Shown: positions 2,178-61,445, counted from the first letter of the stretch. The stretch: 64,000 bases of DNA from an uncultured Gemmatimonadales bacterium (GCA_963779755.1 CAVZZO010000001.1:1952001-2016000), one strand, 5' to 3'. A program made the numbers and translations. Notes: generated by a model not told the origin, from the letters alone.

Positions 2178-2198
2178 CCCCAGGCCGGCAGGCCCGGC

Positions 2199-8658: not shown

Positions 8659-10040
8659 GCGGGGGCGGGGAAGTCGGCCCGGAGCACCGCGGTGAGCAGC
8701 GTGGCCGCGATCAGCACGGTGCCGGCCGTCGAGAAATAGGGCTGCAGGCAGGCGGTCACCCCCATGATGGTAAGACCGCCGAGCGAGGTAGCGGCGATGC
8801 TTCGAGTCGCCTCGTCCCGTATGGCCGCCCCGGCGCGACGGAACCAGAGCAGCGTGAAGGGAAGCGCGGCGGCTACCCCGACGAGACCGTTGTTCACCAG
8901 AAACCAGAGCGGATCGTTGTGGATCGAGCTGGTGAACGAGGCGGCAAACTCGGCGACTTCGATGTTGAAGTATTCGAAGACGTTGGTGAAGCCCAGCCCG
9001 GTGCCGAGCAGGGGGTGGTCCAGCCAGGTGAGGAAAGCGTTGCGCCAGGAGAAGAGGCGCCAGAGCCCCGAGGTGGTGATGTTCTCCGGGTTGAATCGCT
9101 GCAGGATCAGTCCGCCCAGCGGGGTGGCGGTGATGAGGATGTAGAGGACTGGCGCGGCCACCAGCGCCATGGCGATGGCTGCCAGGATGGCGCGGCGGCC
9201 GCGCATGATGACGAGCTGGACGACCAGCCCCGCCGCCAGCGCTGCCCAGGCGGTGCGATAATTGGACACCAGGACGGCGCCGGCGTCGACAGCGGCCAGC
9301 AGCCACCAGCCGGCCGAGCGGGTGCGCGGGTCGAGGGCCCGCGACACCGCGATGAGCACGCCGATCCCGGCGGTGCTGGCCTCGATGAAAGAGAGATACC
9401 GGATGGTCGATCCGGCCAGCAGCTCCTCGGCGTATCCCGTCCCGGTGGCCACCCGTACGACGGCGATGATGGCCACCCCGATCCCCGACAGGGCCAGCGC
9501 GTTCATGGCCCGCTCGACGTGCCCCCGGTGCTGCAGGACGGCCGCGGTTACCAGGATGGTGAGTGAATACAGGCCCATGCGCCGGTAATCGCCCAGGGCG
9601 CTGCGCAGGTCGTTGCCGGCGAGGGCACCGTGCACGAACGAGAGCGTCAGCCAGGAGAATAGCAGGAGATACATCCTGCGCCCGGGCCAGCGATGATCCC
9701 AGCGCTCCGGCGCTATGAATGTGCCGATCACCGCCGCTCCCAGGAGTCCTGCCACCAGGATGTCCAGGTAGTAGACGCGGATACCAAAGTCCACGCCGCC
9801 CGTTCCCAGGGGCAGGCCGAAGACTGCGGAGAGCACCAGCACGCTCAGCAGCGCCGGCATCGGCTCGGCGCTGGCGAAGATCATCAGCGTGCCGCCCAGC
9901 GCCACCATCAGCGGCAGCGCGAAGAGCGGCTGCTGGCCCAGCAATGCCACGGTGCCGGAGACGGCCAGGGCTAGTCCGGCCGCCAGCCAGGTCCAGCTGG
10001 AGCGACGCATCAGCGGGCGTTCAGGAGCGGGTGCCGACAT
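8655..10040 (-). CDS. O-antigen ligase/polymerase (Wzy_C) family membrane protein
   Basis: Many TM segments plus SNYRTAW, WR..W, HPLLGTGLG and IHND motifs. Confidence 0.85.
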   Translation of the reverse strand: MSAPAPERPLMRRSSWTWLAAGLALAVSGTVALLGQQPLFALPLMVALGGTLMIFASAEPMPALLSVLVLSAVFGLPLGTGGVDFGIRVYYLDILVAGLLGAAVIGTFIAPERWDHRWPGRRMYLLLFSWLTLSFVHGALAGNDLRSALGDYRRMGLYSLTILVTAAVLQHRGHVERAMNALALSGIGVAIIAVVRVATGTGYAEELLAGSTIRYLSFIEASTAGIGVLIAVSRALDPRTRSAGWWLLAAVDAGAVLVSNYRTAWAALAAGLVVQLVIMRGRRAILAAIAMALVAAPVLYILITATPLGGLILQRFNPENITTSGLWRLFSWRNAFLTWLDHPLLGTGLGFTNVFEYFNIEVAEFAASFTSSIHNDPLWFLVNNGLVGVAAALPFTLLWFRRAGAAIRDEATRSIAATSLGGLTIMGVTACLQPYFSTAGTVLIAATLLTAVLRADFPAPA

Positions 10041-12051
10041 CGATAACGGTACGGATCGCGTGTACGGCCCTGCCGGGAACCAGCTCGCCGGACAGCCGCA
10101 GGTAAGAGGCGGGAGCGCGCCGCGAATAGCCCGCACTGTACCAGCCGTCGAGGGCTTCCCAGCGTGCCGTGATGCCGTGGAGCGACGCCTGGCCGGTGAG
10201 GATCGCCCCTTGGCTCGCGACCCGCCAGGTCTCCGCAGTTACTTCCTGCACCGCCACGCCGGGCGCGAGCGGCAGCGTGAGGCAGATCGGCAGCCGGCTG
10301 GCGTGGCCCCGGCAGGGCTGGAGCAGGTCGAGCACGATCCAGCGGCGCGTCCCCGGACGGTGCGCGATGCGCCGGATGTGGCGGAGGTGAAACGGCGCCC
10401 GCTGATAGCCGGTATGGCTGCCCCGGAAGACCCAGGTGCCGCCCTGCTGCCGCAGCGCGCGGTCCACCGGCCGGGCATCGGGGATGAGTCGGAAGGCGCT
10501 GGTATCAGAATAGCGGTTCTGTTCAGCGTGCCCCACCGCCACCGTGCTGTGCATCAGGGTGGAGCGGAAGTGCTGCCGCGCAGCTACGTCGCGGGTGTAG
10601 ACCCAGGTTCCGGGATCGGCGATGACCTCGCGGCCGTCGTGGAACAGCGTAAAGCTCAGCTTGTCGTTGTGGGCGTGCCCGCCGCGTCCGTTCTGGCCGT
10701 TCCAGCCGCACACCGCCACCAGTTCGGTCGCGCCGTCCGACAACCGGGCGATGCCCGCCGCGGGCAGGAACAGCGCCGCCCGGCCGGGCCTCCCCGTGGG
10801 GCCATTTCCCCGAACGGCGGGACCCCGCAGCCAGACGGTCTCGGGCGTGTCTTCCCGCGGCTCTCGCCCGGCGGCGGGCCCGAACAGCGGCACCAGATAG
10901 CTGAAATCCCGGGGATCCCTGGAATGGAGCACGTGCAGCCGCGCGTCGTCCGAGTCGCCGATCTGCGGCGCCTGCCCGCGGGCGGTGGTCAGCACGTCCG
11001 CCGCCTCCAGCATGCGCTCGAGCCGCTCCCGGAAGCGGCCGCGGGGCGCCTCGCGGTCGGCCAGCGCAGGATAGGCCAGCAGCTCCAGCGCCAGCCGATG
11101 GTAGCCGGCGGAAGATTCGAACGAGAATCCGTCGTCCAGCGTCTGCAGGACGATTTCCCGTTCCGCCTCCCGGCGACCCAGGGCGGCCCAGCGGGCGGCG
11201 GGAGGATAGACCGGGGCGAGGTGCCCGAGATAGGCCAGTCCGGCGAGATCGGCGAGATAATGATTGGAGCGAATCCCGTCGCGGTTCTCCAGGTTACGGA
11301 CGATGAACCGTCCGTGCTCCACCAGGCTGCGAAAGAGCGGCTCGGCGAGCGCATCCGCCGCCGGCGCATCGCGGATCATGTCCCACGTCGCGATCCAGTT
11401 CGCCGCCCGGATAGCGACGTCCATGGTGCTGACCCACTGGATGCCGTACCCCACCGGATTGTCCGCGATGAAGGAGCGGACCTGCCGGGCGATGGTATCC
11501 GGGTAGGCGGGGTTGTGGCGGAGCCGCCATGCCTGGGCCAGGGTCAGCAGATGCAGGCAGCGGCCCAGTTCCCAGGGCACTTTGGGATCGAGGCCCGGCT
11601 CCCGCCCGATGGCCAGCCCGGCGGACGGGACCGCAGGATCCCAGCCGCCCTGCGCGAACCAGTCCCGGTGCCAGTCAGGGGTCCCGCCCGGCCCGGCGAT
11701 CCGCACGTCGCGGCCGAACAGGCAGACCCGGCCGGCGCACAGGGCATCCGCCGTTGCCACGATCTGGCCGGCGTGGTCGGGGAAGATCCGTTCCAGCACC
11801 GCGGCCGTCCCGGGGCGGGCGCCGTACCAACCCAGGCCGGCGGCCCCTTCGCGCCACCGCTGGAGGGCACCGCGGCCCAGGCGCTCCCGCAGCGCGGCCC
11901 ACTCGCGCTCGTCCAGGCCGGCCCGCACTCGGCGCCGATGGCTGGCGCCCGAGCGCTGCTCCAGCTCGCGCCGCACCTTACCGCGCAGCAGTTCCAGGGT
12001 CATGCCGGGCCCCAGCAGGCGGGCCTCGCGCCATCCCCGGCGCCAGTCCAT
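10021..12051 (-). CDS. Heparinase II/III / alginate lyase-like protein
   Basis: DPKVPWELGR, MDVAIRAANW, SNHYLADL, ESSAGYH, GHAHND and DPGTWVY motifs. ATG 12051 overlaps the flippase stop. Confidence 0.85.
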   Translation of the reverse strand: MDWRRGWREARLLGPGMTLELLRGKVRRELEQRSGASHRRRVRAGLDEREWAALRERLGRGALQRWREGAAGLGWYGARPGTAAVLERIFPDHAGQIVATADALCAGRVCLFGRDVRIAGPGGTPDWHRDWFAQGGWDPAVPSAGLAIGREPGLDPKVPWELGRCLHLLTLAQAWRLRHNPAYPDTIARQVRSFIADNPVGYGIQWVSTMDVAIRAANWIATWDMIRDAPAADALAEPLFRSLVEHGRFIVRNLENRDGIRSNHYLADLAGLAYLGHLAPVYPPAARWAALGRREAEREIVLQTLDDGFSFESSAGYHRLALELLAYPALADREAPRGRFRERLERMLEAADVLTTARGQAPQIGDSDDARLHVLHSRDPRDFSYLVPLFGPAAGREPREDTPETVWLRGPAVRGNGPTGRPGRAALFLPAAGIARLSDGATELVAVCGWNGQNGRGGHAHNDKLSFTLFHDGREVIADPGTWVYTRDVAARQHFRSTLMHSTVAVGHAEQNRYSDTSAFRLIPDARPVDRALRQQGGTWVFRGSHTGYQRAPFHLRHIRRIAHRPGTRRWIVLDLLQPCRGHASRLPICLTLPLAPGVAVQEVTAETWRVASQGAILTGQASLHGITARWEALDGWYSAGYSRRAPASYLRLSGELVPGRAVHAIRTVIDVGTRS

Positions 12052-20439: not shown

Positions 20440-20513
<74 letters not shown>

Positions 20514-20516
20514 TTG

Positions 20517-20560
20517 AGGACGGCAGGACGGCAAGACGGGAGGACGGCAGGACGGCAAGG
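20517..20560. repeat. Short imperfect 8-nt tandem repeat (AGGACGGC-like, about 5 units)
   Basis: gaggacggcaggacggcaagacgggaggacggcaggacggcaagg directly after the tRNA. Confidence 0.75.
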
Positions 20561-20604
20561 AATATCCTCGACCCTCTTAGTCCCCTCGACACCTCGACCC
20601 ACCC

Positions 20605-23229
20605 ATGCCAGACGAGCGCACCCGCCTGAAGGATGCCCTTGCCGACCGCTATGCCCTCGATCGGGAAATCGGGAGCGGGGGCATGGCCACGGTCTACCTC
20701 GCCCAGGACCTGCGCCACGACCGTCAGGTGGCGGTCAAGGTCCTCCGGCCCGACCTGGCCGCCACGCTGGGGAGCGACCGGTTCTTCCGCGAAATCCAGG
20801 TGGCCGCGCGGCTGCAGCACCCGCACATTCTGCCGCTGCTCGATTCCGGCGAGGCGGGCGGCTTCTACTACTACGTCATGCCCTATGTGCAGGGCGAGTC
20901 GTTGCGCGAGCGGCTGGCCAGGCATGGCGAGTTGCCGGTGCACGAGACGGTGAAGCTGCTCTCCGAAGTCGTGGATGCCCTGGCCGAGGCCCATGCCAAC
21001 GGCGTAGTGCACCGCGACATCAAGCCGGACAACGTGATGCTCTCGGGCCGTCACGCGCTGGTGATGGACTTCGGCGTGGCCAAGGCGGTGAGCGAGGCGA
21101 CCGGGCGGCAGAAGCTGACCACGGCCGGTATCGCGCTGGGGACGCCCTCATACATGGCGCCGGAGCAGGCGGCGGCCGATCCGCAGCTGGATCACCGGGT
21201 GGACATCTACGCGGTGGGGGTGCTGGGCTACGAGATGCTCACCGGCAGCCCGCCGTTTGGGGGAAAGAGCCCGCAGGAGATCCTGGCGGCGCAGGTGACC
21301 CAGGCGCCGGAGCCGATTTCGAAACATCGCCCAGCCGTGTCGGCGGCGCTGGAGTCGGTACTGATGAAGTGCCTGGAGAAGCGGGCGGCCGACCGGTGGC
21401 AGACGGCGGAGGAGCTGCTGGGGCAGCTGGAGGTGCTGGCCACGCCAAGCCTGGGGATGACGCCGACCCAGACCCGGCCGGTGGCGGCGGTCGCGGTCGG
21501 CGGCCGCGGGTTCCCGCTCTGGGCCGCCTGGGTGCTGGGCGGGGCGCTGGTGGCGGCGGGTGCTCTGGCATTGACGCTGCGGCAGCGAGCGCCCGCCGTG
21601 CTGGACCTGGGAAATCGCACCCCGCTGGCGGTCTCGCCGGACATCGAGCAGTGGCCCGACCTCAGCCCTGATGGAAAGCTGGTCGCCTACACCGTGGCGG
21701 ACACGGCCGGAGTTCACCTCACGGTGCGGCAGGTGGGTGGCGGGGTTCCCATCGCCATTACCGAAGGCACTCAGGCCTGGGTCGGCGCCATATCGCCCGA
21801 TGGCAGCCGCCTCCTGCATTCCGGCCCGAACGGTCTGTACGTCATGCCGCTCCTCGGTGGCCCCGCCCGGCCCGTAGCGGACATCAGCCCGATGGGCGCG
21901 GCGTGGTCTCCCGACGGACGGCGTGTCGTCCTTGCCTCCCGGGATACCCTGTTCGAGCAGAGCCTGGACGGCACCGGCCGGAAGCCGCTGGCGGCCGGCG
22001 TAGATCTGCATTCGCCCGCCTGGTCGCCCGACGGCAGGTGGATCGCCTACGTCGAGGGAAATTCGAGGTTCTACGGCCAGGGCAACAACGCGCCCAGCCG
22101 GATCCTGGTACTACCCGCCGCGGGGGGCACGCCGGTCGCCGTGACGGACTCGGCCTCGTTCAACACCAGCCCGGTCTGGATCCCCGGCCGGCGCGCCCTG
22201 CTGTTCATTTCCGACCGCGAGGGCGGCCGCGATATTTATCAGCTGGAGCTGACCTCCAGCGGGGCCGCGGCCGCTCCCCCGGTCCGCATCACGACCGGCC
22301 TCAACCCCGGCCGGATCAGCCTTTCGGCCGACGGGAAACGCCTGGCCTGGTCCACCGGAGTCCAGACGTCCAACATCTGGGAGATCCCCATCTCCGGTCG
22401 CGATTCGGTTCCGTTCTCCCGGGGCCGCCAGGTCACCACCGGCTCGCAGGATGTCGAGCAGGCAGACGTGTCGCCCGATGGCCGATGGCTGTACTACGAC
22501 TCGAACCTCGGCGGCCACTCCAGTATCTGGCGCCAGCCGCTGGCGGGAGGAACCCCGGAGCGCCTCACCAGCGACTCCGCCGACGATTTCGCCCCCGCCG
22601 TCTCGCCCGACGGACGCTGGGTCGCCTTCCACTCCACGCGCAACGGCAGTAGTAACCGGGACGTGTTCGTGATCCCGGCGGCGGGAGGGCCTGCCGTGCA
22701 GGTCTCCACCAGTGCCGGAGACGACCGGGTCCCTCATTGGAGTCCGGACGGCAGGATGCTGGCCTGGTCCGATAACGACAGGCCCGACAGCAATATCCTG
22801 GTAGCGCACCGGCAGGCCGGCGGGTCCTGGTCGGCGCCGCGGCGGCTTGCCGCGCGGGGATTTCAGGCAGGACAGTGGCGGCCCACGGGTGGGATCACGC
22901 TCGGGTCATCCGCTGGAATCTCGCTGCTGGACCCCGCGAGTGGGGCGACGACCCTTCTGGTGGACTCGACCGGGGCCCCGGGGGGGGGTGCGTACACCGC
23001 CTGGTCCGGGGACGGCAAGACGCTGTATTTCGCCGTACGGGATTCGGCGGGCCCGGTCGTCCGCCTTCGGGCAATCACGCGGCCGGGGGGCCGGCCGAGG
23101 ACGGTGGCGTACACCGATAATCCCCGGGCCCAGTTCTTTCGCTTCGGCCTGGCGGCGCATGCGGGATATCTCTACCTGCCACTGGTGGATGCAAACTGGG
23201 ATGTGTGGGTGGCGGATGTGGAGCGCTAG
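20605..23229 (+). CDS. Membrane Hanks-type Ser/Thr kinase with C-terminal TolB/PD40 beta-propeller repeats
   Basis: GSGGMATV, VAVK, HRDIKPDN, DFG and GTPSYMAPE motifs, TM segment FPLWAAWVLGGALVAAGALAL, and many SPDG repeats. Confidence 0.95.
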   Translation: MPDERTRLKDALADRYALDREIGSGGMATVYLAQDLRHDRQVAVKVLRPDLAATLGSDRFFREIQVAARLQHPHILPLLDSGEAGGFYYYVMPYVQGESLRERLARHGELPVHETVKLLSEVVDALAEAHANGVVHRDIKPDNVMLSGRHALVMDFGVAKAVSEATGRQKLTTAGIALGTPSYMAPEQAAADPQLDHRVDIYAVGVLGYEMLTGSPPFGGKSPQEILAAQVTQAPEPISKHRPAVSAALESVLMKCLEKRAADRWQTAEELLGQLEVLATPSLGMTPTQTRPVAAVAVGGRGFPLWAAWVLGGALVAAGALALTLRQRAPAVLDLGNRTPLAVSPDIEQWPDLSPDGKLVAYTVADTAGVHLTVRQVGGGVPIAITEGTQAWVGAISPDGSRLLHSGPNGLYVMPLLGGPARPVADISPMGAAWSPDGRRVVLASRDTLFEQSLDGTGRKPLAAGVDLHSPAWSPDGRWIAYVEGNSRFYGQGNNAPSRILVLPAAGGTPVAVTDSASFNTSPVWIPGRRALLFISDREGGRDIYQLELTSSGAAAAPPVRITTGLNPGRISLSADGKRLAWSTGVQTSNIWEIPISGRDSVPFSRGRQVTTGSQDVEQADVSPDGRWLYYDSNLGGHSSIWRQPLAGGTPERLTSDSADDFAPAVSPDGRWVAFHSTRNGSSNRDVFVIPAAGGPAVQVSTSAGDDRVPHWSPDGRMLAWSDNDRPDSNILVAHRQAGGSWSAPRRLAARGFQAGQWRPTGGITLGSSAGISLLDPASGATTLLVDSTGAPGGGAYTAWSGDGKTLYFAVRDSAGPVVRLRAITRPGGRPRTVAYTDNPRAQFFRFGLAAHAGYLYLPLVDANWDVWVADVER

Positions 23230-23277
23230 GAATCAGGGACCAGGAACCGGGGATCAGGGGCATTCCCCTCATCACCG

Positions 23278-24789
23278 ATGATCCGGCTTACCCTTCGCGG
23301 GGACCCCGCGCAATCGCGCGACTACACGCAGGCGCTGATCCGGGTGGGCCGCGGCTCCGGCTGCGATTGGGTGGTCCAGGGCGATCAGGCGGAGAGCGTC
23401 TCCCAGTTTCACGCCCAGATCTCCCTGCGCGACGGGTCCTGGCTGCTGCAGGATACCGGCAGCACCAACGGCACGCTGGTGAACGGGCAGCGGATCCAGC
23501 GGCGCGTGCTGCAGCCGGGCGATGTGATCAGGCTCGGCGCGGGCGGGCCCGAGCTCCTCGTCGAGATCGATTTCGACGCCATTCCCCGCGGTGCACCCGC
23601 CGTCATGAGTACCGCTCCACGTCCCGCCCTGCCCGATGATCCATCCAGCGACCTCCCGCCGGGCGATCCGGTGCCGGCGGGACGGCCCAGCACCGCCCTG
23701 GCGGTGGAACGGGCGGTATTGGATATCGAAGCGGCGCGCAGCGAATCCGGTGGCCGACGGCGCAGCACCCGTTCGCTCCTGCGCGAGGCGCTCCACGAGG
23801 TCTCCGCCACGGTGCAGGCGAGGACCCGGCGCCGCTGGGTGCGGGTGGTGCTCGGTGTGGCCGGCGTCGGGCTGCTCGGGCTCATGACCCTGGGCGTGAT
23901 CGTCGTCCGCCAGCAGCGGCAGCTCGCCGCTCTGCTGGCCCGGAAAGCGGCCATCGACCGGCAGATCGAACAGGTGCAGGAGGCCATGCAGAATGAAGAT
24001 GATCCCGGCCGCCTGGCGCAGCAGGAACAGCTGCTCGATGCGCTGACCGGCAACGCCGAGGCCACGCTCGTGGCCGTAGGACAGCGCGACAAGGCCCGGG
24101 CCGCCCAGCTGGCGCAGGGCAGCGACGAGCTGGACCGGGAGATCCGCCGCATTCTCTCCCAGTTCGACGCCACGACCTACGCGGTGCCCCCCATCTTCCG
24201 GGAACGGCTGCAGTATCACATCGACCAACTGGTTCACTCGGGAACCCTGGGCCAGGTGTACCGGCGCAAACAGAAATACTGGCCGATCATCAGGAAGGAA
24301 TTCGGCGCCCTGGAGTTGCCGGAGGACATGGCCTACATCGCCTGGGCCGAGTCGGAGTTCGATCCCGAGGCGCTGAGCGGCGCGGGCGCGCGGGGGATGT
24401 GGCAGATGACGGTCGCGACCGCCGAGCGCTACGGGCTCATGGTGAACGACTCGGTGGACCAGCGGCTCGATGTCCGCCTGCAGACCCACGCCGCGGCCCG
24501 CTATCTGGCCGACCTGCTGAGCGAGTTCGGCGAGGATGCCTTCATGCTGGCGCTGGCCAGCTACAACCGGGGCGAGGCCGGCGTGCGCCGGGCGCTGCAC
24601 GACGTGGCCGCCGATCCCGGCGGCTTCCGCCGGGACAAGCGGAACTTCTGGCATCTCTACCGGCTGAAGAAGCTGCCGCCGGAGACGCGGGAATACGTGC
24701 CCAGGGTGCTGGCCGCGGCCGTGATCGGGAGCAACCCCGAGCGGTACGGGCTCGCACCGGCCTCCTCGTCACCTCAGGCTTCCCATTAG
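23278..24789 (+). CDS. FHA domain - TM - coiled coil - SLT (MltD-like) lytic transglycosylase fusion
   Basis: FHA: VGRG, VSQFHA, STNGTLVNG. TM after RRR. SLT: AES (catalytic Glu), GARGMWQM, ASYNRG and ETREYVPRV. Confidence 0.88.
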   Translation: MIRLTLRGDPAQSRDYTQALIRVGRGSGCDWVVQGDQAESVSQFHAQISLRDGSWLLQDTGSTNGTLVNGQRIQRRVLQPGDVIRLGAGGPELLVEIDFDAIPRGAPAVMSTAPRPALPDDPSSDLPPGDPVPAGRPSTALAVERAVLDIEAARSESGGRRRSTRSLLREALHEVSATVQARTRRRWVRVVLGVAGVGLLGLMTLGVIVVRQQRQLAALLARKAAIDRQIEQVQEAMQNEDDPGRLAQQEQLLDALTGNAEATLVAVGQRDKARAAQLAQGSDELDREIRRILSQFDATTYAVPPIFRERLQYHIDQLVHSGTLGQVYRRKQKYWPIIRKEFGALELPEDMAYIAWAESEFDPEALSGAGARGMWQMTVATAERYGLMVNDSVDQRLDVRLQTHAAARYLADLLSEFGEDAFMLALASYNRGEAGVRRALHDVAADPGGFRRDKRNFWHLYRLKKLPPETREYVPRVLAAAVIGSNPERYGLAPASSSPQASH

Positions 24790-24792
24790 GAA

Positions 24793-24962
24793 CCGCAGAT
24801 TACGCAGATTACGCAGATTGACTCTATGAAATCAGCGGATCAACCCCGGCCTCTCTTCACCCCCGCACTTCTCGACCGGATTGGATGCTGGATCTGGGCA
24901 CCGCTGCCAAGATGGTTGCGGGTCGCTCCAGATTACATCTGCGTAATCTGCGTAATCTGCGG
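24793..24962. repeat. Perfect 26-bp inverted repeat built from 9-nt units, with a 118-nt spacer
   Basis: ccgcagattacgcagattacgcagat (24793-24818) and atctgcgtaatctgcgtaatctgcgg (24937-24962). Confidence 0.92.
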
Positions 24963-27537
24963 CTTCTTCCTCCCCAGCCTCGCCGTTGCTCAGAAGCCGG
25001 GGGCTCTGCCGTACCAGGATCCGCGATTGCCGATCGCCGAGCGGGCCCAGGATCTCCTGGGCCGCATGACGCTGGAGGAGAAGTTCTGGCAGCTGTTCAT
25101 GATCCCCGGCGATCTGGACGATCCGGCAAACGACTACCGCCACGGGGTTTTCGGCCTACAGGTGTCGGTGGTGGATTCGACCGGAAGCGCAGGCGAGATC
25201 GCCCGGGCCCACGCGTGCCGCATCAACGCCATCCAGCGCTACTTTGTCGAGCGCACCCGGCTGGGGATCCCGATCATTCCCTTCGATGAGGCAGTTCACG
25301 GGCTGATCCGGCCCGGCGCCACCATGTTTCCCCAGGCCATCGCCCTGGCCGCGGCCTGGGATTCCGCGCTGGTGGGAGACGTGGCCCAGGCGATCGCCCG
25401 GGAGACCGGGAGCCGGGGCATCCGGCAGGTGCTCTCGCCGGTGCTGAACATCGCCAGCGATGTGCGATGGGGCAGGGTGGAGGAGACCTACGGCGAGGAC
25501 CCGGTGCTTGCTTCGCGCATGGGCGAGGCGTTCGTGCGCGCCTTTGAGGCGCTGGGCGTGGCGGCCACCCCCAAGCACTTCGTGGCCAACGTGGGCGAGG
25601 GCGGCCGGGACAGCTATCCGATCGACTACGACCGTCGGGCGCTGGAGGAGCGGTTCTTCCCTCCCTTCCGGAGTGCGCTTGCAGAAGCGGGCGCGCATTC
25701 CGTCATGGCGGCCTACAACTCGGTGGGCGGGATCCCGGCCTCGCAGAACCGCTGGCTGCTGACCCATGTCCTGCGGGGGGAATGGCACTTCGGCGGTGTC
25801 GTCATCTCCGATCAGGCCGCGACCGCCGGCCCGACCGTGTTGCAGCACACCGAAGCCAGCACCGCCACTGCGGCGCAACACGCGCTCGAGGCCGGGCTGG
25901 ACGTGATCTTCCAGTCGGCGTATCCGCAATATCGCCCCTATCTCGCGGCCTTCCAGCGGGGCCTGGTCCCCCGGCCCGTGCTCGACACCGCGGTGGCGCG
26001 GGTGCTGCGGCTCAAGTTCGAGCTGGGTCTCTTCGAGCATCCCTACGCCGATCCGGACAGCGCGGCCCGGTGGAACGGCAATGCCAGGCATGCGGAGCTG
26101 GCGCGGCAGGCCGCCCGCGAGTCGATCGTGCTGCTCCGGAACCGGAAGGGTACGCTGCCACTGTCCCGGTCGATCGGCTCGGTCGCGGTGATCGGCTCCG
26201 ATGCCGTGGAAGCGCGGCTGGGAGATTACAGCGGTGCCGGAGCTCGGCCGGTGTCCATCCTCGACGGCATCCGCCAGGAGCTCGGCTCCTCGGCACCGGT
26301 GCGGTACACCCCCGGCCCGGGCCGGGCCGATACGGAGTATGTGACCATTCCGGCGGCGTTGCGGGGCGAATACTTCGCCAACCCGCGGCTGGAAGGGGAG
26401 CCGCGGGTGGTCCGGAGTGATACGCGGGTGGATTTCCACTGGACCATCAGTCCGCCGGCGCCAGGCATCCCACAAGACTGGTACTCGGTGCGCTGGACGG
26501 GGCAGGTGACCATCTCCCCCGGCGGGGTCCGGCGAATCGGCGTCGAAGGGAACGACGGCTATCGTCTCTACCTGGACGATTCGCTGGTCATCGACAACTG
26601 GCGGAAACGGTCCTACGGTGTGCGCCTCGCCCCCGTGGCGGTGGTTCCCGGCAGCAGCCACAGGCTGCGCCTGGAGTACTTCGAGACCAGGAGCAACGGC
26701 CGGATCCGGCTGGTCTGGGACGCCGGGGCCGCTCCCATCTGGCCGGCCGCGCTCAAGGCCGCCGTCGCGCTGGCGCGGACGAGCGACGTCGCCATCGTGG
26801 TCGCGGGCATCGAGGAGGGCGAGTTTCACGATCGCGCCTTGCTCGCGCTCCCCGGCCGCCAGGAGGACCTGATCCGGCAGCTGGCGGCGACGGGCACGCC
26901 GGTGGTGGTGGTCCTGATCGGCGGCAGTGCCGTCACCATGCCCTGGCTGGAGGAGGTGGACGCGGTGGTTGACGCGTGGTACCCCGGCGAGCAGGGCGGC
27001 CCGGCGGTGGCCGATGTGCTGTTTGGCGGCTACAATCCGGCCGGGCGGTTACCGATCACGTTCCCCGTCGCCGAGGGGCAGCTGCCGCTGTACTACAACC
27101 ACGAACCGGCCGGCCGGGGCGACGATTATGGCGACCTCACCGGGCTGCCGCTCTTTCCGTTCGGCTTCGGGCTGAGCTATACCACCTTCGAGTATTCGTC
27201 GCTCGGCATCTCGCCCGAGTCCATGGACGCCGCCGGCACGGCGGTGATCCGCTGCCGCGTGCGCAATACCGGAACTCGCGGGGGCGACGAGGTGGTGCAG
27301 CTATACATCCACCAAGTGCTGGGATCGGTGGCCCGTCCGGTGATCCAGCTCCAGGGCTTCCAGCGCATCCACCTGGAGCCGGGCGAGGAGCGCGAGGTCC
27401 GGTTCCGGCTTTCGACCGAGCAGTTGAGGACATTCCAGCGGGGTGGGGACTGGGTAGTAGAGTCCGGGGCATACCAGGTGATGGTCGGAGCTTCCTCCCG
27501 GGACCTCCGGTTGCGGGGGGTGCTGCTGATCCGCTGA
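24826..27537 (+). CDS. GH3 beta-glucosidase/xylosidase with PA14 insert and Fn3-like C-terminus, probably secreted
   Basis: MTLEEK, RLGIP, DEAVHG, WGRVEETYGEDP, KHF, VISD (nucleophile) and PFGFGLSYTTF motifs. Start uncertain (ATG 24826 or TTG 24916). Confidence 0.93.
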   Translation: MKSADQPRPLFTPALLDRIGCWIWAPLPRWLRVAPDYICVICVICGFFLPSLAVAQKPGALPYQDPRLPIAERAQDLLGRMTLEEKFWQLFMIPGDLDDPANDYRHGVFGLQVSVVDSTGSAGEIARAHACRINAIQRYFVERTRLGIPIIPFDEAVHGLIRPGATMFPQAIALAAAWDSALVGDVAQAIARETGSRGIRQVLSPVLNIASDVRWGRVEETYGEDPVLASRMGEAFVRAFEALGVAATPKHFVANVGEGGRDSYPIDYDRRALEERFFPPFRSALAEAGAHSVMAAYNSVGGIPASQNRWLLTHVLRGEWHFGGVVISDQAATAGPTVLQHTEASTATAAQHALEAGLDVIFQSAYPQYRPYLAAFQRGLVPRPVLDTAVARVLRLKFELGLFEHPYADPDSAARWNGNARHAELARQAARESIVLLRNRKGTLPLSRSIGSVAVIGSDAVEARLGDYSGAGARPVSILDGIRQELGSSAPVRYTPGPGRADTEYVTIPAALRGEYFANPRLEGEPRVVRSDTRVDFHWTISPPAPGIPQDWYSVRWTGQVTISPGGVRRIGVEGNDGYRLYLDDSLVIDNWRKRSYGVRLAPVAVVPGSSHRLRLEYFETRSNGRIRLVWDAGAAPIWPAALKAAVALARTSDVAIVVAGIEEGEFHDRALLALPGRQEDLIRQLAATGTPVVVVLIGGSAVTMPWLEEVDAVVDAWYPGEQGGPAVADVLFGGYNPAGRLPITFPVAEGQLPLYYNHEPAGRGDDYGDLTGLPLFPFGFGLSYTTFEYSSLGISPESMDAAGTAVIRCRVRNTGTRGGDEVVQLYIHQVLGSVARPVIQLQGFQRIHLEPGEEREVRFRLSTEQLRTFQRGGDWVVESGAYQVMVGASSRDLRLRGVLLIR

Positions 27538-27570: not shown

Positions 27571-27717
27571 GACGGCCCGGCCATCCCTCCGCGCGCTGGT
27601 GGTGCGCGCTCCTTTCTGGAGATCCCGATCCACTTCACCGCGCCCCAACGCGCGCTCCGGGATGGTCCAGCCCGTCGGCGCGGCTGGGGGAAGGCAGCAG
27701 CAGAAGGGGCCTCCCGC
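27571..27717. repeat. 147-bp structured direct repeat, copy 1
   Basis: Differs from copy 2 at 5 positions. Internally palindromic (ccatccc...gggatgg). Confidence 0.9.
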
Positions 27718-30672: not shown

Positions 30673-31527
30673 GTGCCACACTCCGCAGGAGCATCCCACC
30701 GATCCGAGTGCCACGCGGGAATCCTGGTCGCCATTGGGGGCTCGGAATCGAAGGATGGCGTGCCGGAGATCCTGGGGCGTTTCGTGTACGCGGCGGGCGG
30801 GCGGCACGCCGATATCCTCCTCATTCCGATTGCGTCGTCCCTGCAGAGCACGGCGGAGCGTTACCGTGCGACTTTCCGGCATCTGGGAGCGGCGTCGGTG
30901 CAGGTGTTGCATCCCAAGACGTCGGGTGCCGCCAACGATCCCGAGGCCGTGGCGATGGTGGGCCAGGCATCGGCGATCTTCTTCACCGGGGGAGACCAGT
31001 ACCGCCTGGCCCAGCGCCTTGCCGGTACCGCGCTGGAGCGGGCGATTCGAGAGGCGCATGCCCGCGGCACCACTGTCGGAGGGACCTCGGCCGGCGCCTC
31101 CTTCCTCTCACGACGGATGATCGCGTACGGCAAGAGCGGCTCCACTCCGCGGCACGATCTGGTCAACCTGGCCGATGGGCTGGGCCTGACCTCCCGCTTC
31201 ATCATTGATCAGCACTTCCAGGAGCGAAACCGCATGGGCCGTCTGCTGACGGCGCTCGCACTGTGTCCCGGCGCCATGGGGCTGGGGCTGGATGAGGGGA
31301 CGGCCGCGGTGCTTGACGGCGACTCGCTGGAGGTCGTCGGCGACGGTGCCATCACGGTCCTCGACGGCCGCCGTATGGACGCCCGCGTGCCGCATCACTG
31401 GGACCGGCACGACCCGATCTGCCTGACCAACGTGCGGATGCACATCCTGGTGCACGGCGCGCGGTTCGATGTCCGCCGCCGCCGCGCCACCCCACCGTCA
31501 GCTACCGAGAAGGAACCCCGGCAATGA
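30673..31527 (+). CDS. cphB: Cyanophycinase (peptidase S51)
   Basis: AIGG, FTGGDQ, GTSAG (Ser), DQHF (His), RMGRL and GLDE (Glu) motifs. Coupled to cphA by ATGA. Start placed at GTG 30673 after GGAG (ORF track starts at 30517). Confidence 0.9.
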   Translation: MPHSAGASHRSECHAGILVAIGGSESKDGVPEILGRFVYAAGGRHADILLIPIASSLQSTAERYRATFRHLGAASVQVLHPKTSGAANDPEAVAMVGQASAIFFTGGDQYRLAQRLAGTALERAIREAHARGTTVGGTSAGASFLSRRMIAYGKSGSTPRHDLVNLADGLGLTSRFIIDQHFQERNRMGRLLTALALCPGAMGLGLDEGTAAVLDGDSLEVVGDGAITVLDGRRMDARVPHHWDRHDPICLTNVRMHILVHGARFDVRRRRATPPSATEKEPRQ

Positions 31528-34235
31528 ACATCGAGGGCATTTCTGTCTACCAGGGCCCGAGCGTCTGGGCGTATTTTCCGGTCATTCGTGTCCGGCTGGA
31601 CCTGGGGCTGCTGGAGTCGTGGCCCAGCGGCCGACTCGGCACGGCGTTCCAGCAGGGACTCCTCAGGGCCTTGCCCGGGCTGCGCGAGCACGGCTGTTCC
31701 TACGGCGTTTCCGGCGGATTCGTGCGGCGCCTGACCGAGGGCGATGGCACCTGGCTGGGGCACGTGATGGAACATTCGGCCCTCGAGCTGCAGAATCTCG
31801 GCGGGTTCCCCGTCAGCTTCGGCCGCGCCCGCGGCGTCCCCGGCCGGCCCGGGGTGTACGACGTGGTCTACCAGTTTCGCGAGCGGGAGGTCGGCCTCGC
31901 GGCCGGCCGGCTCGCGCTGACGCTGCTGTACTCGCTCCTGCCGGAAACCCTGCGCGAGGGCTTTACCCCGCCGCTTCCTGATTACGCCGCGGAGCGTGAA
32001 GGCTTCCTGGAACTGGCGCGGCGCAAGACGCTGGGGCCCAGCACGGCTGCTCTGGCCCAGGCCGCACAGCAGCGGCGCATCCCCTGGGAGCGGCTGGACG
32101 GCGACCACCTGATCCAGCTGGGAACCGGGGTGTACCAGTGCCGGGTGCAGGGGTCCATCACCAGCCGTACCTCGCAAATAGGGGTGGAGATCGCACAGGA
32201 CAAGGCGCTGACCAACCGGGTGCTGGACGCTCTGGGGATTCCGGTGCCGGCCCAGGTGCGGGTCGATGACGAGGACGAAGCCGTGGCGGCGGCGGCTCGG
32301 CTGGGATGGCCCGTTGTGGTGAAACCGGTGGATGGCAATCACGGCCGGGGGGTCGAACCGGGGGTCAGTACCGCGGCCGAGGTGCGGACGGCGTATCATG
32401 CTGCGTCGCAGGAGGGGGGTGGGGTGCTGGTGGAGGAGCACCTCGAGGGGCGGGATTATCGGCTGCTGGTAGTGAACGGGTCGGTCGTGGCTGCCGCCCA
32501 ACGGGTGCCGGCCCAGGTGGTGGGCGACGGGATAAGCGCGATCGAGGCGCTGGTGGAACGGGTCAACGCCGACCCGCGGCGGGGGGAGGGACATGCGAAT
32601 GTGCTGACCCGCATCGAGCTGGATGAAGAAGCGGACCGGATGCTGGCGCGGGCCGGGCACCGCCGGGACAGCGTCCCCGCCCGTGGAGAGGTGGTTCCAT
32701 TGCGGGCTACGGCCAACCTTTCCCGGGGCGGCACCTCGGTGGACGTCACCGACCGCGTTCACCCCGACAATCGTCTGCTCGCCGTGCGCGCCGCCCTGGC
32801 GGTGGGCCTGGACGTGGCGGGCGTGGACTTCCTCTGCCCCGACATCACCCGTTCCTACCTGGAGGTGGGTGGCGGCGTGTGCGAGCTGAACGCCGCTCCC
32901 GGCCTGCGCATGCATGTGGCGCCGGCAGCAGGTACGCCCCGCGACGTCGCCGGCCCGATCATGGATTATCTGTATCCGCCCGGCTCTGCCACCACCATTC
33001 CCATCGCCGCGATCACCGGAACCAACGGCAAGACCACCACGGCCCGGATGGTGGCGCACCTGGCCGCTGCCGCCCACCGGCGCGTGGGGCTTGCCACGAC
33101 CGACGGAGTGTACGTCGGCGGGCGGCGGATCGCCCGCGGCGACATGACGGGCCCGGCATCGGCGCGCATGCTGCTGCGGGACGCCACGGTGGACTGCGCC
33201 GTGCTGGAGACCGCACGGGGCGGCATTCTGCGCGAGGGGCTGGGCTTCCGGCATTGCAGCGTAGGCGCGGTGCTCAACGTGACCGCGGACCATCTGGGAC
33301 TCGGCGGCATCGACACGGTCGAAGGCCTGGCCGACGTCAAACGGATCGTGGTCGAGGTCGCCGGCAACCTCGCCGTCCTCAACGCCGACGATCCGCTGTG
33401 TCTCGTGATGGCGGAATCCACCGAGGCGCGTATCTGTCTGGTCAGCCTGGACCCGATGAACCCGGCCATCGTGCGGCATCTCCAGAGTGGCGGGCTGGCC
33501 GTCGTGCTGGAGGATGGCAATGATCCGTCGCTGGTGGTCTGCGAAGGGGCCCGGCGCACCCCCCTGCTGCCGGCGCGCCGCATCCCCGCCACCCTGGACG
33601 GCAAGATCCGCTTCAACATCCAGAATGCAGCTTTCGCGGCGGCTATCGGCCTGGGATTGGGATTGGACGTTGGGACGATCCGGGGCGGGCTGGCTACCTT
33701 CGAGGCCAGTATCACCCATACACCGGGACGGGTGAACCTGTATGACAAACATCCGTTCCGGGTGCTGGTGGACTACGGGCACAACCCGGCGGCGGTACGC
33801 GCCATGTGCGAGGTGGCCGGGAAGCTGGCTGGCACGGGGCGGACGATCTGTGTGCTGGCGGTGCCGGGCGACCGGCGGGACGAAGATATCCGGGAGGTGG
33901 CCCGGGTGGCCGCGGGCTGGTGCGACTACTACATCTGCCGTCGCGACGACCAGCTACGCGGCCGGCGACCGGACGAGGTGCCGCTTCTCCTGTGCGAAGG
34001 GCTTCGTTCCGCCGGGGTGCCGGCCGAGCGAATCAGCGTGGTGCCGTCCGAAGCGGACGCCACGCTGACGGCGCTCGGCACGGCCCGCCCGGGCGATCTG
34101 CTGCTCCTCTTCGCCGATAACCTGGAGCGGACCTGGCAGCAGGTGGTGACCTTCCAGCCGGAGGTGCAGCCGGTGGTGTCGCGGGGTCGGTTCAGCACGC
34201 CGGCGGTCGCCCGGCGGGAGCAGGCGCTCGCGTGA
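31524..34235 (+). CDS. cphA: Cyanophycin synthetase CphA1
   Basis: N-domain HGCS...GHVMEH, LGPST, ATP-grasp KPVDGNHGRG and NAAPGLRMH, Mur-ligase GTNGKTT, ETARGG and DYGHN motifs. Confidence 0.95.
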   Translation: MNIEGISVYQGPSVWAYFPVIRVRLDLGLLESWPSGRLGTAFQQGLLRALPGLREHGCSYGVSGGFVRRLTEGDGTWLGHVMEHSALELQNLGGFPVSFGRARGVPGRPGVYDVVYQFREREVGLAAGRLALTLLYSLLPETLREGFTPPLPDYAAEREGFLELARRKTLGPSTAALAQAAQQRRIPWERLDGDHLIQLGTGVYQCRVQGSITSRTSQIGVEIAQDKALTNRVLDALGIPVPAQVRVDDEDEAVAAAARLGWPVVVKPVDGNHGRGVEPGVSTAAEVRTAYHAASQEGGGVLVEEHLEGRDYRLLVVNGSVVAAAQRVPAQVVGDGISAIEALVERVNADPRRGEGHANVLTRIELDEEADRMLARAGHRRDSVPARGEVVPLRATANLSRGGTSVDVTDRVHPDNRLLAVRAALAVGLDVAGVDFLCPDITRSYLEVGGGVCELNAAPGLRMHVAPAAGTPRDVAGPIMDYLYPPGSATTIPIAAITGTNGKTTTARMVAHLAAAAHRRVGLATTDGVYVGGRRIARGDMTGPASARMLLRDATVDCAVLETARGGILREGLGFRHCSVGAVLNVTADHLGLGGIDTVEGLADVKRIVVEVAGNLAVLNADDPLCLVMAESTEARICLVSLDPMNPAIVRHLQSGGLAVVLEDGNDPSLVVCEGARRTPLLPARRIPATLDGKIRFNIQNAAFAAAIGLGLGLDVGTIRGGLATFEASITHTPGRVNLYDKHPFRVLVDYGHNPAAVRAMCEVAGKLAGTGRTICVLAVPGDRRDEDIREVARVAAGWCDYYICRRDDQLRGRRPDEVPLLLCEGLRSAGVPAERISVVPSEADATLTALGTARPGDLLLLFADNLERTWQQVVTFQPEVQPVVSRGRFSTPAVARREQALA

Positions 34236-49323: not shown

Positions 49324-49377
49324 GGCGCGCGTGGAGAAAGGCAGGGCTCACCCGACCGATTGCGAAGGAGTCGATCA

Positions 49378-56052: not shown

Positions 56053-56059
56053 GGCGGTC

Positions 56060-58744: not shown

Positions 58745-58753
58745 GGAACAAAG

Positions 58754-59376: not shown

Positions 59377-59377
<1 letters not shown>
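58754..59377 (-). CDS. kdpC: K+-transporting ATPase subunit C
   Basis: GSRLIGQ, SRPSA, SGSNLGP, SASGLDPDI and EPRVNVL motifs. Confidence 0.95.

Positions 59378-61445
<2,068 letters not shown>

Follow-up and report, generated by a model that had tools for sequence, protein, structure and literature searches.

PASTA kinases (PknB-CwlM, StkP, PrkC) combine extracytoplasmic sensing of the cell wall with threonine phosphorylation that regulates wall-remodeling enzymes, and their known targets are either phosphorylated directly or reached via soluble adaptors. In the PknB module, a receptor kinase with an extracytoplasmic sensor phosphorylates juxtamembrane threonines, and an FHA domain reads this mark and controls a cell-wall enzyme. 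This PknB-FhaA-MviN (MurJ) module of Mycobacterium tuberculosis was reportedly described by Gee and colleagues in 2012.

The locus that we analyzed lies in a 64,000-nt stretch of DNA from an uncultured Gemmatimonadales bacterium (GCA_963779755.1 CAVZZO010000001.1:1952001-2016000; the whole stretch is called the window below) and comprises a predicted receptor kinase (gene 1) followed by a predicted lytic transglycosylase with an N-terminal FHA domain and a C-terminal SLT domain (gene 2, FHA-SLT). Like the PknB-FhaA-MviN module, it brings together a receptor Ser/Thr kinase, juxtamembrane threonines, an FHA domain, and a wall enzyme, and the FHA domain of FhaA is the best structural match to the N-terminus of gene 2. 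However, FhaA is soluble and governs synthesis via the lipid II flippase, while in gene 2 the FHA domain and a degradative enzyme would be parts of one chain that crosses the membrane; a PD40 propeller takes the place of PASTA domains as the sensor, and the organism is diderm. The same holds for PASTA-kinase systems more broadly, which share the extracytoplasmic-sensor kinase, the wall-remodeling enzyme, and, by prediction, threonine phosphorylation with this locus but differ from it in that gene 1 lacks PASTA domains and the FHA reader is fused to the enzyme itself.

On the enzyme side, the closest relative is MltD, a family 1D lytic transglycosylase that in Escherichia coli and Pseudomonas aeruginosa carries LysM repeats and is anchored in the outer membrane as a lipoprotein. 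The SLT domain of gene 2 is similar to MltD in sequence and fold with a conserved catalytic Glu-Ser motif, but the protein has neither a lipobox nor LysM repeats and instead carries a predicted inner-membrane anchor behind a presumably cytoplasmic FHA domain. A further parallel is the threonine-phosphorylation pathway of type VI secretion systems (T6SS), in which the kinase PpkA, the FHA reader Fha1 (TagH), and the PP2C phosphatase PppA control the assembly of an envelope machine and in which the lytic transglycosylase MltE, recruited by TssM, must open the wall (PMC13584744). The known systems of this type divide reading and wall cutting between two proteins, with MltE being a housekeeping lipoprotein, whereas gene 2 would join both functions in one polypeptide.

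Results

Genes 1 and 2 are both encoded on the plus strand (20605..23229 and 23278..24789) and are separated by a purine-rich spacer of 48 bp (23230..23277) in which a consensus scan found no terminator-like hairpin; this co-orientation and spacing agree with what an earlier note on this DNA had described. Gene 3 (24826..27537, plus strand), encoding a secreted BglX-like glycosidase with GH3, PA14, and Fn3-like domains by Pfam and profile search, starts 36 bp 3' of gene 2, and beyond this set of three co-oriented genes the nearest terminator-like hairpin lies at 27590..27609 (plus strand; consensus scan only). Intergenic gaps of 48 and 36 bp on a single strand, and no terminator-like site before 27590 in the scan, make the layout operon-like: gene 2 is probably co-transcribed with the upstream PD40-propeller kinase gene, and gene 3 may be part of the same transcript. 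No homologue of gene 3 was found as a neighbor of FHA-SLT genes at 80 related loci, and the same result, 0 of 80, was obtained for DAHP synthase and the other window genes used as queries. Directly 5' of gene 1, a tRNA-Met (CAT) gene (20440..20513, plus strand; ARAGORN and sequence) separates the kinase/FHA-SLT/GH3 block from the divergently oriented aromatic-amino-acid genes on its other side.

Gene 1 (874 aa, P0001; GC3 0.86) matches the Pfam Pkinase profile (PF00069) over aa 16-271 (20650..21417; E 5.1e-50, 170.7 bits vs a cut-off of 31.7) with a complete set of catalytic motifs, i.e., VAVK (K45), HRDIKPDN at 136-143 (HRD 136-138), DFG at 155-157, and APE at 185-187. By these features, it is a Hanks-type Ser/Thr protein kinase. 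The activation loop carries KLTTAG at aa 170-175, and a Thr-rich juxtamembrane segment found by motif search, TPSLGMTPTQT (aa 280-290; 21442..21474), whose first Thr has a Leu at +3, would be a candidate FHA ligand. A hydropathy scan places a single TM helix at aa 307-325 (21523..21579), followed by a predicted periplasmic PD40/TolB-like beta-propeller (aa about 340-874; 21622..23226; Pfam PD40 E 1.7e-38). The description of gene 1 in the earlier note as an RD kinase with one TM helix and an external TolB-like propeller is thus borne out by Pfam and the hydropathy scan. Two more specific assignments were rejected: the product is not a TolB, which has an N-terminal domain besides its propeller and belongs to the Tol-Pal system, given that only PD40 propeller repeats match, that these share a chain with a kinase, and that the NCBIfam TolB model TIGR02800 scores 136 bits vs a cut-off of 343. 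Nor is it a PASTA-type wall-sensing kinase (PknB/Stk1), because NF033483 reaches 306 bits vs a cut-off of 450 through the kinase domain only; no PASTA family was matched in gene 1 by Pfam.

Gene 2 (503 aa, P0002), whose start is supported by an N-terminal MIR conserved in homologs, begins with a predicted cytoplasmic FHA domain (aa 1-100; 23278..23577; pLDDT above 90). Pfam PF00498 matches aa 21-87 (E 3.3e-20, 72.7 bits vs a cut-off of 20.7), and the residues with which FHA domains contact phosphothreonine (Gly-Arg, Ser-x-x-His, Asn-Gly) are present as G24 R25, SQFH at 42-45 (S42, H45), and N64 G65. Judged by profile and contact residues, the N-terminus is an FHA domain, and phosphothreonine binding is predicted. 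Foldseek returned the FHA domain of M. tuberculosis FhaA (3oun; TM-score 0.92 on target) as best match and also matched GarA. The following linker (23584..23844) is disordered at aa 103-136 and helical at 138-156 in the model and contains a conserved Gly-rich motif that includes Thr164 and a Leu at +3 before leading into an RRRW membrane border (184-187). The single TM helix (aa 190-208; 23845..23901) falls within a continuous model helix (162-239), and a helical stalk (aa 209-294; 23902..24159) with helices to 239, at 243-281, and at 284-294 connects to an MltD-type SLT domain (aa about 300-490; 24175..24747), both of them presumably periplasmic.

This SLT domain matches Pfam PF01464 (aa 351-442; E 1e-22, 80.3 bits vs a cut-off of 21.3) and P. 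aeruginosa MltD both in a PDB profile search (8rhe, E 1.2e-23) and in Foldseek, where 8rhf, 8rhe, and 8rhi are the best hits (E about 1e-8; 8rhf 1.1e-8) with 30% identity over ~200 columns. The predicted catalytic Glu358, part of an AWAES motif, is encoded at 24349-24351, and no LysM family was found in gene 2 by Pfam at E <= 0.01. We therefore rejected gene 2 as a classic MltD, since LysM repeats and a lipoprotein signal are missing and the MltD equivalog model reaches 88 bits vs a cut-off of 508. The AlphaFold2 model (mean pLDDT 78.8) shows a confident SLT domain alongside the FHA sandwich, so that Pfam, AlphaFold2, and Foldseek agree with the architecture originally proposed (FHA, TM, coiled coil, and MltD-like SLT without LysM), and all motifs quoted for both genes were located.

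The earlier note had also placed the two domains of gene 2 on opposite sides of the inner membrane based on a positive-inside pattern. A lone TM segment between FHA and SLT in both the hydropathy scan and the model, together with the absence of an N-terminal signal sequence from a protein whose FHA domain starts at residue 1, fits a layout with FHA inside and SLT outside. The charge bias itself is weak for gene 2 (5 vs 4 K/R residues), so the positive-inside rule can hardly tell the two orientations apart.

Gene 2 belongs to a family of conserved proteins of ~505 aa in records labeled Gemmatimonadota, Myxococcota, Pseudomonadota, and Holophagaceae. Among 120 relatives, the key residues are retained nearly throughout (G24 in 120, R25 in 118, S42 in 118, H45 in 120, N64 in 116, and E358 in 120). 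The spread of the gene is patchy, with FHA-SLT present in 12 of the 201 genomes sampled from the phylum, which fall into 5 of 98 genera, and in 8 of 61 genomes of an Anaeromyxobacter-like family; in a Pseudomonadota-labeled clade, nearly all neighboring ORF clusters are unique to one locus or shared with only one or two others.

The kinase linkage across FHA-SLT homologs that the proposal of the earlier note calls for is largely absent. Among 83 stretches including the window, a kinase is the direct neighbor in four (4.8%; the window, L022, L065, and L074), with a fifth (L030) having one two genes away. The 1.076 Mb of FHA-SLT stretches contain 13 kinase domains, or about one for every 73 kb once the gene itself is left out, compared with one per 62 kb for the whole 4.23 Mb genome, so kinases are not enriched around FHA-SLT. 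On a tree of 79 FHA-SLT proteins, adjacency requires 3 changes, clusters no more than shuffled labels, and is compatible with a single origin in 0 of 200 bootstrap trees. Four genomes of the same family (G005, G007, G012, and G015) encode two to five kinase domains each that are 69-74% identical to that of gene 1, all on contigs other than that of the FHA-SLT gene. The kinase of L022, which is divergent and 158 bp from FHA-SLT, has a catalytic domain 72% identical to that of gene 1, compared with 61% at most for any paralog in this genome, though its C-terminal part differs and PD40 is found there as a separate ORF of only 27-30% identity. The pairing of a gene 1-type kinase with FHA-SLT is therefore neither conserved nor general, and we rejected a conserved kinase/FHA-SLT pair as a system.

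These data bear directly on the possibility that the adjacency in the window is due to chance or a recent juxtaposition in a kinase-rich genome. FHA-SLT would then be a free-standing, horizontally mobile accessory gene whose FHA domain reads phosphothreonine elsewhere, on another of the kinases or on a kinase substrate, while gene 1 has unrelated targets. We regard this as a realistic possibility, if not the leading one. The genome has 68 Pkinase matches, gene 1 among them, confirming the caveat raised initially that this kinase type is often highly paralogous, and we estimate that ~3-4% of genes would have a kinase neighbor by chance, close to the observed frequency. The background kinase density near FHA-SLT, its highly variable gene context and patchy distribution, the start of the block directly after a tRNA gene, and the location of the relatives' closest kinases elsewhere in the genome all point the same way. 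Against it stand the co-orientation of the two genes across a short gap without a terminator-like site, the kinase of L022 from the same subfamily as gene 1, and the fact that kinase adjacency arose at least 3 times in the family, with one lineage fixing a fusion that makes the FHA domain dispensable.

This fusion is among several recurring ties to phospho-signaling. At L065, from a Myxococcota lineage, 6 bp separate the end of a co-oriented Pkinase+TPR gene from the FHA-SLT gene downstream of it, and at L074 the ortholog of this kinase continues in frame into linker, TM, and SLT with the FHA domain deleted; of the eight carrier genomes in the Anaeromyxobacter-like family, only those with these two loci have the upstream kinase. 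Three clusters of fused proteins in the protein database (1231-1278 aa; Pkinase+TPR+SLT without FHA) include one identical to the L074 product and two that are 77-78% identical to it. A hydropathy scan predicts 3 TM segments in the fusion, which would keep the kinase inside and the SLT domain outside. In addition, a PP2C phosphatase gene lies 24 bp downstream of FHA-SLT in the same orientation at L045 and abuts it divergently at L115, where a Pkinase+TPR gene is found 4.2 kb away; the window itself contains no PP2C gene, and this PP2C type is common across the phylum with or without FHA-SLT. Linkage to kinases and PP2C is thus recurrent yet sporadic. Taken together, the sequence data support a general tie of the FHA-SLT family to Hanks-kinase signaling. 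This part of the circuit first proposed for the locus has held up, while the claim of gene 1 as the specific partner is not supported beyond the adjacency of the two genes.

An alternative that we consider unlikely is that FHA-SLT serves as a dedicated wall opener for an export machine that carries polysaccharide across the envelope and is encoded alongside exopolysaccharide or capsule genes, with its FHA domain tied to cytoplasmic regulators of that machine instead of gene 1. Upstream of FHA-SLT, Gemmatimonadota-labeled loci recurrently encode GT4 glycosyltransferases (13 loci), Wza-like Poly_export/SLBB proteins (7), Polysacc_synt_2 (6), and UDP-GlcNAc 2-epimerase (6). The window has its own Wzy/flippase/GT4/Wzz-like cluster at about 1-15.8 kb, 7.4 kb 5' of gene 2, and a homolog of the Wzz-like gene lies 8.3 kb upstream of FHA-SLT in G005. 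However, the genomes that contribute these Gemmatimonadota-labeled loci are related and occupy one part of the tree, so that the counts cannot be treated as independent, and a non-systematic check found no polysaccharide genes among the annotated conserved neighbor clusters of Myxococcota, Holophagaceae, and Pseudomonadota-labeled loci. In the window, five unrelated genes plus a tRNA gene lie between the cluster and gene 2, and export machines of this sort are known to work with tyrosine kinases, whose output FHA domains do not recognize.

T6SS could likewise be set aside for this locus. No TssC or TssF was found in the genome itself (97% complete), so this branch of FHA-SLT is independent of T6SS; of 10 further carrier genomes that were searched, 6 yielded no TssC, and where it is present it lies on a different contig from FHA-SLT. 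Gene 2 was also rejected as a T6SS TagH/Fha1 (TIGR03354 56.6 bits vs a cut-off of 120.25).

Finally, it is very improbable that the FHA domain is a phosphorylation-independent module that anchors or oligomerizes the enzyme like the structural cytoplasmic FHA-like domains of T3SS YscD/PrgH: gene 2 does match Yop-YscD_cpl in Pfam above cut-off (E 9.5e-12) with the same predicted N-in bitopic layout, and kinase-SLT fusions do without FHA, but 116-120 of 120 relatives retain the Arg, Ser, His, and Asn residues for phosphothreonine binding, the best fold matches (FhaA and GarA) are genuine phosphothreonine readers, and PP2C and kinase genes recur beside FHA-SLT.

Discussion

The explanation that we favor, tentatively and at somewhat less than an even chance for the whole, is an FHA-read inner-membrane transglycosylase with the kinase of gene 1 as its writer. 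Gene 2 would be a bitopic MltD-type lytic transglycosylase that keeps its FHA domain in the cytoplasm, where it would read phosphothreonine written by Hanks-type kinases, an arrangement that would allow periplasmic peptidoglycan cleavage to be positioned, clustered, or activated from the cytoplasmic side. Gene 1 would be the most likely writer and also the docking site via its activation-loop or juxtamembrane threonines. Together, the two proteins could form an outside-in-outside loop in which the kinase responds to a periplasmic cue and the resulting phosphothreonine recruits the FHA domain for a local cut of the wall. Gene 1 as the partner of gene 2 is plausible though unproven, with the adjacency of the genes pointing to it; from this arrangement we infer that the FHA domain would bind the gene 1 product, that this would alter the activity or position of the enzyme, and that the propeller would sense a cue. 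Beyond this locus, FHA-SLT proteins constitute a real and widespread family of lytic transglycosylases, as yet undescribed and apparently unstudied, that by their conserved domains and residues would be read out through phosphorylation.

A transmembrane enzyme with a putative phosphothreonine reader beside a receptor kinase

The window has a G+C content of ca. 70%, and its clear genes were picked out by codon-position G+C. The first gene of interest (20605-23229, + strand) encodes a receptor kinase of 874 aa with a Pkinase domain (16-271) and PD40 beta-propeller repeats in its C-terminal half as assigned by Pfam, a single hydrophobic segment (307-325), and the motifs HRDIKPDN (136-143), DFG (155-157), KLTTAG (170-175), and TPSLGMTPTQT (280-290). 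After a spacer of 48 bp (23230-23277), it is followed on the same strand by a gene for a protein of 503 aa (gene 2; 23278-24789) with an N-terminal FHA domain (21-87) and a C-terminal lytic transglycosylase (SLT) domain (351-442). This FHA-SLT protein carries G24 R25, S42, H45, and N64 G65, a border of RRRW (184-187), one hydrophobic segment (190-208), and AWAES with E358. All motifs that an earlier note had quoted from the two genes are present, and its reading of gene 2 as devoid of a recognizable LysM agrees with a Pfam profile search, which found no LysM family in the protein at E <= 0.01.

A third gene (24826-27537) starts 36 bp after gene 2 and encodes a secreted GH3 glycosidase with PA14 and Fn3-like domains and an N-terminal hydrophobic leader. 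By a consensus scan, neither intergenic gap of this three-gene series contains a terminator-like hairpin; the nearest such hairpin downstream of the series is at 27590-27609. No Shine-Dalgarno-like GGAGG lies close to the ATG of gene 2. The purine-rich spacers at 20514-20604 and 23230-23277 contain repeated GGACGGCA-like and GGAxCAGG-like units; the former follows a tRNA-Met gene (20440-20513) that separates the kinase from a divergently transcribed DAHP synthase gene. Of 25 genomes searched at E <= 1e-100, 13 others match this DAHP synthase, with identities of just 48-65%. The GH3 gene was dismissed as a partner of FHA-SLT genes because a homolog was found near none of the 80 loci that we compared (0/80).

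An AlphaFold2 model of the FHA-SLT protein, built from an alignment of 25 sequences (mean pLDDT 78.8), shows an FHA sandwich at 1-100 (pLDDT > 90), a low-confidence stretch (103-136) leading into a helix (138-156), a very long helix that includes the transmembrane segment (162-239) with more helices up to 294, and a confident catalytic domain at ca. 300-490. The top Foldseek matches in the PDB are structures of Pseudomonas aeruginosa MltD (8rhf, 8rhi, and 8rhe; E ~1e-8, 30% identity over ca. 200 columns), followed by the phosphothreonine readers FhaA (3oun; TM-score of 0.92 on the target), GarA, and OdhI, and a profile search of PDB sequences concurs (8rhe, E 1.2e-23). The protein passes none of the NCBIfam equivalog models (88 vs 508 bits for MltD and 56.6 vs 120.25 for TagH). 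Since the FHA domain is at the very start of the protein and there is one transmembrane helix, the simplest topology puts FHA on the inner side and SLT on the outer side of the membrane. With a weak charge bias (5 vs 4 K/R residues), this assignment rests on domain logic. Gene 2 encodes a probably bitopic enzyme in which the phosphothreonine-reading pocket at one end and the MltD-type catalytic site at the other are both intact.

FHA-SLT proteins form a large family of accessory enzymes

In a clustered protein collection, 765 of 8000 scored candidates matched gene 2 (E <= 1e-3). Of these, 120 were listed (query included); they are 493-551 aa long, all have both domains, and they share 44-56% identity with gene 2 across 94-100% of its length. 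The key residues are almost invariant among them (G24 and H45 as well as the catalytic E358 in all 120, R25 and S42 in 118 each, and N64 in 116). In a collection of species-representative genomes, 433 of the 447 pattern-matched stretches encode a relative. According to record titles, which we used as given and which can be wrong for MAGs, the 80 loci kept comprise 41 from Gemmatimonadota, 21 from Myxococcota or "Deltaproteobacteria", 15 from Pseudomonadota (mostly Rubrivivax/Burkholderiales MAGs), and three from Holophagaceae. The family is thus large and, by record label, present in several phyla.

Within the phylum of the source genome, its distribution is patchy: 12 of the 201 sampled genomes (E <= 1e-60) and five of the 98 genera carry it, and all 12 carriers belong to one family (11/95 besides the source genome). 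Among the 24 genomes of this family that were searched first, a tally that includes the unpublished G014, four encode a full-length or nearly full-length ortholog (G005, G007, G012, and G015) and one (G020) has a distant FHA-SLT protein of ca. 30-35% identity, while the remaining genomes match the SLT part only. In the family that holds the genome of L074, a locus with a kinase fusion, 8/61 genomes carry FHA-SLT. FHA-SLT is an accessory gene and not a core wall enzyme.

Kinases adjoin FHA-SLT genes about as often as roughly estimated for a kinase-rich genome

The source genome is rich in kinases, with 68 Pkinase matches in 4.23 Mb, many of them in tandem arrays, and FHA matches occur in five open frames. 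About 25 of the 68 Hanks kinase genes lie in a single tandem array of ca. 120 kb on its contig C1 (G000:C1:417000-540000), mostly on the same strand. A census of activation loops among the 68 paralogs by regular expression was discarded because its pattern was too strict, yielding eight matches and missing the kinase of the window itself.

Kinase linkage was assessed by a tblastn census with the kinase domain of gene 1 over 83 stretches, i.e., the 80 loci, two stretches from relatives, and positions 10001-36000 of the window. This query, which might miss more divergent kinases, found 13 kinase domains of >= 60 bits in 12 of the 83 stretches (1.076 Mb in total, 0.95 Mb outside the FHA-SLT genes), i.e., ca. 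one per 73 kb near FHA-SLT vs one per 62 kb across the source genome. Kinase and PP2C phosphatase counts were taken from tblastn on DNA and are hence unaffected by the picking of open reading frames for the neighbor census, which chose an antisense frame instead of FHA-SLT at 13 loci and none at L025, leaving gene ranks sound for 66/80 loci. A kinase is the direct neighbor in four stretches: it is co-oriented at a distance of 48 bp in the window, divergent at 158 bp in L022, co-oriented at 6 bp in L065, and fused in L074. At L030, an Lnt gene separates kinase and FHA-SLT. By a rough estimate, 3-4% of genes would be expected to adjoin a kinase in a kinase-rich genome, and 4.8% were observed.

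When the four kinase-adjacent cases are mapped onto a carefully built maximum-likelihood tree of 79 proteins, three changes are needed to explain them. A single origin of the adjacency is compatible with none of 200 bootstrap trees, and its label clusters no more than shuffled labels do. This tree omits four partial sequences (L018, L050, L075, and L114), and a quick tree gave the same counts. L065 has L074 as its sister (99/89 support), the protein of the window is on a long unresolved branch, and L022 groups with L043 in the full quick tree. The four close relatives with orthologs (G005, G007, G012, and G015) each encode two to five kinase domains that are 69-74% identical to that of gene 1, all of them off the FHA-SLT contig, and the source genome itself has no paralog above 61% identity. 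The neighboring kinase at L022 is 72% identical in its catalytic domain, with PD40 repeats in a separate frame that is only 27-30% identical to the propeller of gene 1. The stretches examined from further carriers, namely genomes G144 and G204 of the phylum and six loci of the Anaeromyxobacter-like family, contain no kinase.

Given direct adjacency in 4/83 stretches, a density no higher than background, three changes on the tree, and gene 1-like kinases located elsewhere in the relatives, a linkage of kinases to FHA-SLT homologs, which the earlier note had made a test of its pairing, is largely refuted. The specific two-gene switch in the window is unproven. We still find it quite conceivable that the PD40 kinase and gene 2 are paired as a signaling unit. 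Alternatively, and as a more tentative reading, gene 1 could have come to lie next to gene 2 by chance while another kinase writes the mark for its FHA domain. Gene order by itself is insufficient to name the partner kinase.

Kinase fusions and phosphatase neighbors

Several observations nonetheless speak for a tie of the family to Ser/Thr phospho-signaling. At L065, the gene of an 869-aa protein with Pkinase and TPR stops 6 bp short of the FHA-SLT start. An orthologous kinase (70-73% identical) at L074 (5370-9065, + strand) is joined in frame to the linker, transmembrane segment, stalk, and SLT domain of FHA-SLT in a single frame of 1231 aa, so that of the FHA-SLT enzyme only the FHA domain is gone. 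In the protein collection, fusions of this kind, which have Pkinase, TPR, and SLT but no FHA, make up three clusters (1231-1278 aa; P0127, P0128, and P0129), one identical to the product of L074 and two 77-78% identical to it. They derive from Anaeromyxobacter-like MAGs and metagenomes of both ENA and JGI, so that a single assembly error does not account for the fusion. Three transmembrane segments are predicted in it (308-326, 337-355, and 924-942), the first two forming a hairpin, which would leave SLT outside and the kinase and TPR parts in the cytoplasm. At least once in nature, a covalently attached kinase has taken the place of the FHA domain. That this domain is dispensable after such attachment would be expected if FHA served to hold the enzyme at a phosphorylated kinase, and the fusions argue for this tethering role. 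Position 164 in the linker is Thr/Ser in 120/120 relatives, with I/L/V at +3 in 120/120. Thr164 as an internal FHA ligand is kept merely as an idea, since this residue sits at a predicted helix start, is retained in the FHA-less fusions, and may be a simple helix cap.

At L045, a gene for a soluble PP2C phosphatase starts 24 bp after FHA-SLT. At L115 (G020:C4:238000-257500), a divergent PP2C gene adjoins the distant FHA-SLT gene of G020, with a hybrid histidine kinase (PAS/GAF) and a Pkinase + TPR gene, whose kinase domain is 69% identical, within 4.2 kb; the genes of this cluster lie at 8960-10441 (-), 10891-11799 (+), 6139-8949 (+), and 2171-4966 (-). FHA-SLT is placed between PP2C and the hybrid histidine kinase there, which may represent a fuller signaling cluster. 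Because the source genome has only three PP2C_2 matches, adjacency in 2/83 stretches exceeds a rough expectation of 0.1-0.3, though this count is small and post hoc. The window contains no PP2C gene. Phylogenetic profiles gave no specific co-occurrence and the link was rejected on this count: the PP2C type of L045 and L115 is present in 115/201 genomes of the phylum (with the unpublished G145 counted in) vs 12/201 for FHA-SLT, and it lies away from FHA-SLT in other carrier genomes. The FHA-SLT family repeatedly gains kinase or PP2C neighbors. At two Holophagaceae loci, a large histidine kinase gene is located directly upstream of FHA-SLT and co-oriented with it (L077:4804-7809 and L078:5699-7804, both +), with HisKA and HATPase_c domains as scanned in L077.

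Other genomic context

FHA-SLT neighborhoods are otherwise variable. A link to polysaccharide genes would fit the Gemmatimonadota-labeled loci, at which FHA-SLT is often downstream of genes for GT4 (13 loci), Wza-like (7), Polysacc_synt_2 (6), or epimerase (6) proteins, and a Wzy/flippase/GT4/Wzz-like cluster is also present in the window (up to 15.8 kb). However, these loci come from related genomes, and we therefore rate the link as a minor rival. A gene for a coiled-coil protein of ca. 317 aa (range about 300-360 aa) follows FHA-SLT at 22 Gemmatimonadota-labeled loci, e.g., L003:9600-10493 (+) and L033:9540-10628 (+), and its product matches no real Pfam family. It was rejected as a fixed partner because the 22 loci are related and the copy of the source genome is found among unrelated genes on the other large contig (G000:C3:1309061-1309972, +). 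A role in type VI secretion was rejected for this FHA-SLT branch because TssC and TssF have no match in the source genome (97% complete) and TssC, found in 4/10 other carrier genomes tested, is always on a different contig; one branch of the family thus works without any T6SS.

Elsewhere in the window, a protein of 2866 aa (35644-44244, -) that combines a Glycoamylase domain with the supersandwich and catalytic domains of GH94 looks like a giant enzyme of the cyclic beta-1,2-glucan synthase type. Taken with the secreted GH3/PA14 glycosidase, it hints that this region serves the metabolism of periplasmic glucans. A cyanophycin synthetase-like gene (31524-34235, +) combines a Cyanophycin_syn N-terminal domain with ATP-grasp and Mur ligase domains. 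The gene of a HipA-like kinase (47040-48332, -; Couple_hipA + HipA_C), possibly part of a toxin-antitoxin module, lies where the G+C content is lower (0.636 at 48001-50000). An ordinary Kdp potassium-uptake cluster (55354-63188, -) comprises a KdpE-like response regulator (Response_reg + Trans_reg_C), the KdpD sensor kinase, a KdpB-like E1-E2 P-type ATPase, and KdpA.

Discussion

The proposed logic of FHA-SLT is similar to that of three known systems: the mycobacterial PknB-FhaA-MviN module, the control of hydrolases by PASTA kinases, and the PpkA-Fha1-PppA switch of the T6SS with recruitment of MltE (PMC13584744). Gene 2 departs from them in that a single transmembrane protein contains both the reader and the wall cutter. 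Full-text literature searches found no published description of an FHA-SLT protein, and none is mentioned in the accessible portions of PMC12419801, PMC13584744, and bioRxiv 10.64898/2026.10.19.760177.

In the mechanism that we propose, a Hanks kinase would phosphorylate itself or a partner, and binding of this phosphothreonine mark by the FHA domain would recruit, cluster, or activate the periplasmic SLT enzyme via the long transmembrane-stalk helix. The first candidate writer in the source genome would be the co-oriented PD40 kinase, with its propeller as periplasmic input. In a broader reading that we regard as doubtful, FHA-TM-SLT would be a self-contained transmembrane phospho-switch into which varied receptor kinases can be plugged, i.e., PD40-type here, TPR-type in Myxococcota, and PpkA-type beside T6SS. 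Here, the periplasmic TolB-like propeller would sense the state of the envelope, the kinase would mark itself in the cytoplasm, and FHA would bring or activate the peptidoglycan cutter at the same spot in the periplasm, resulting in a signal-directed local opening of the wall without a secretion machine.

Lytic transglycosylases are dangerous enzymes, and to our knowledge the control of their localization and timing in diderm bacteria is mostly unknown. An enzyme of this kind with a phosphothreonine-reading cytoplasmic end would connect Ser/Thr kinase signaling directly, within one protein, to wall cleavage across the inner membrane.
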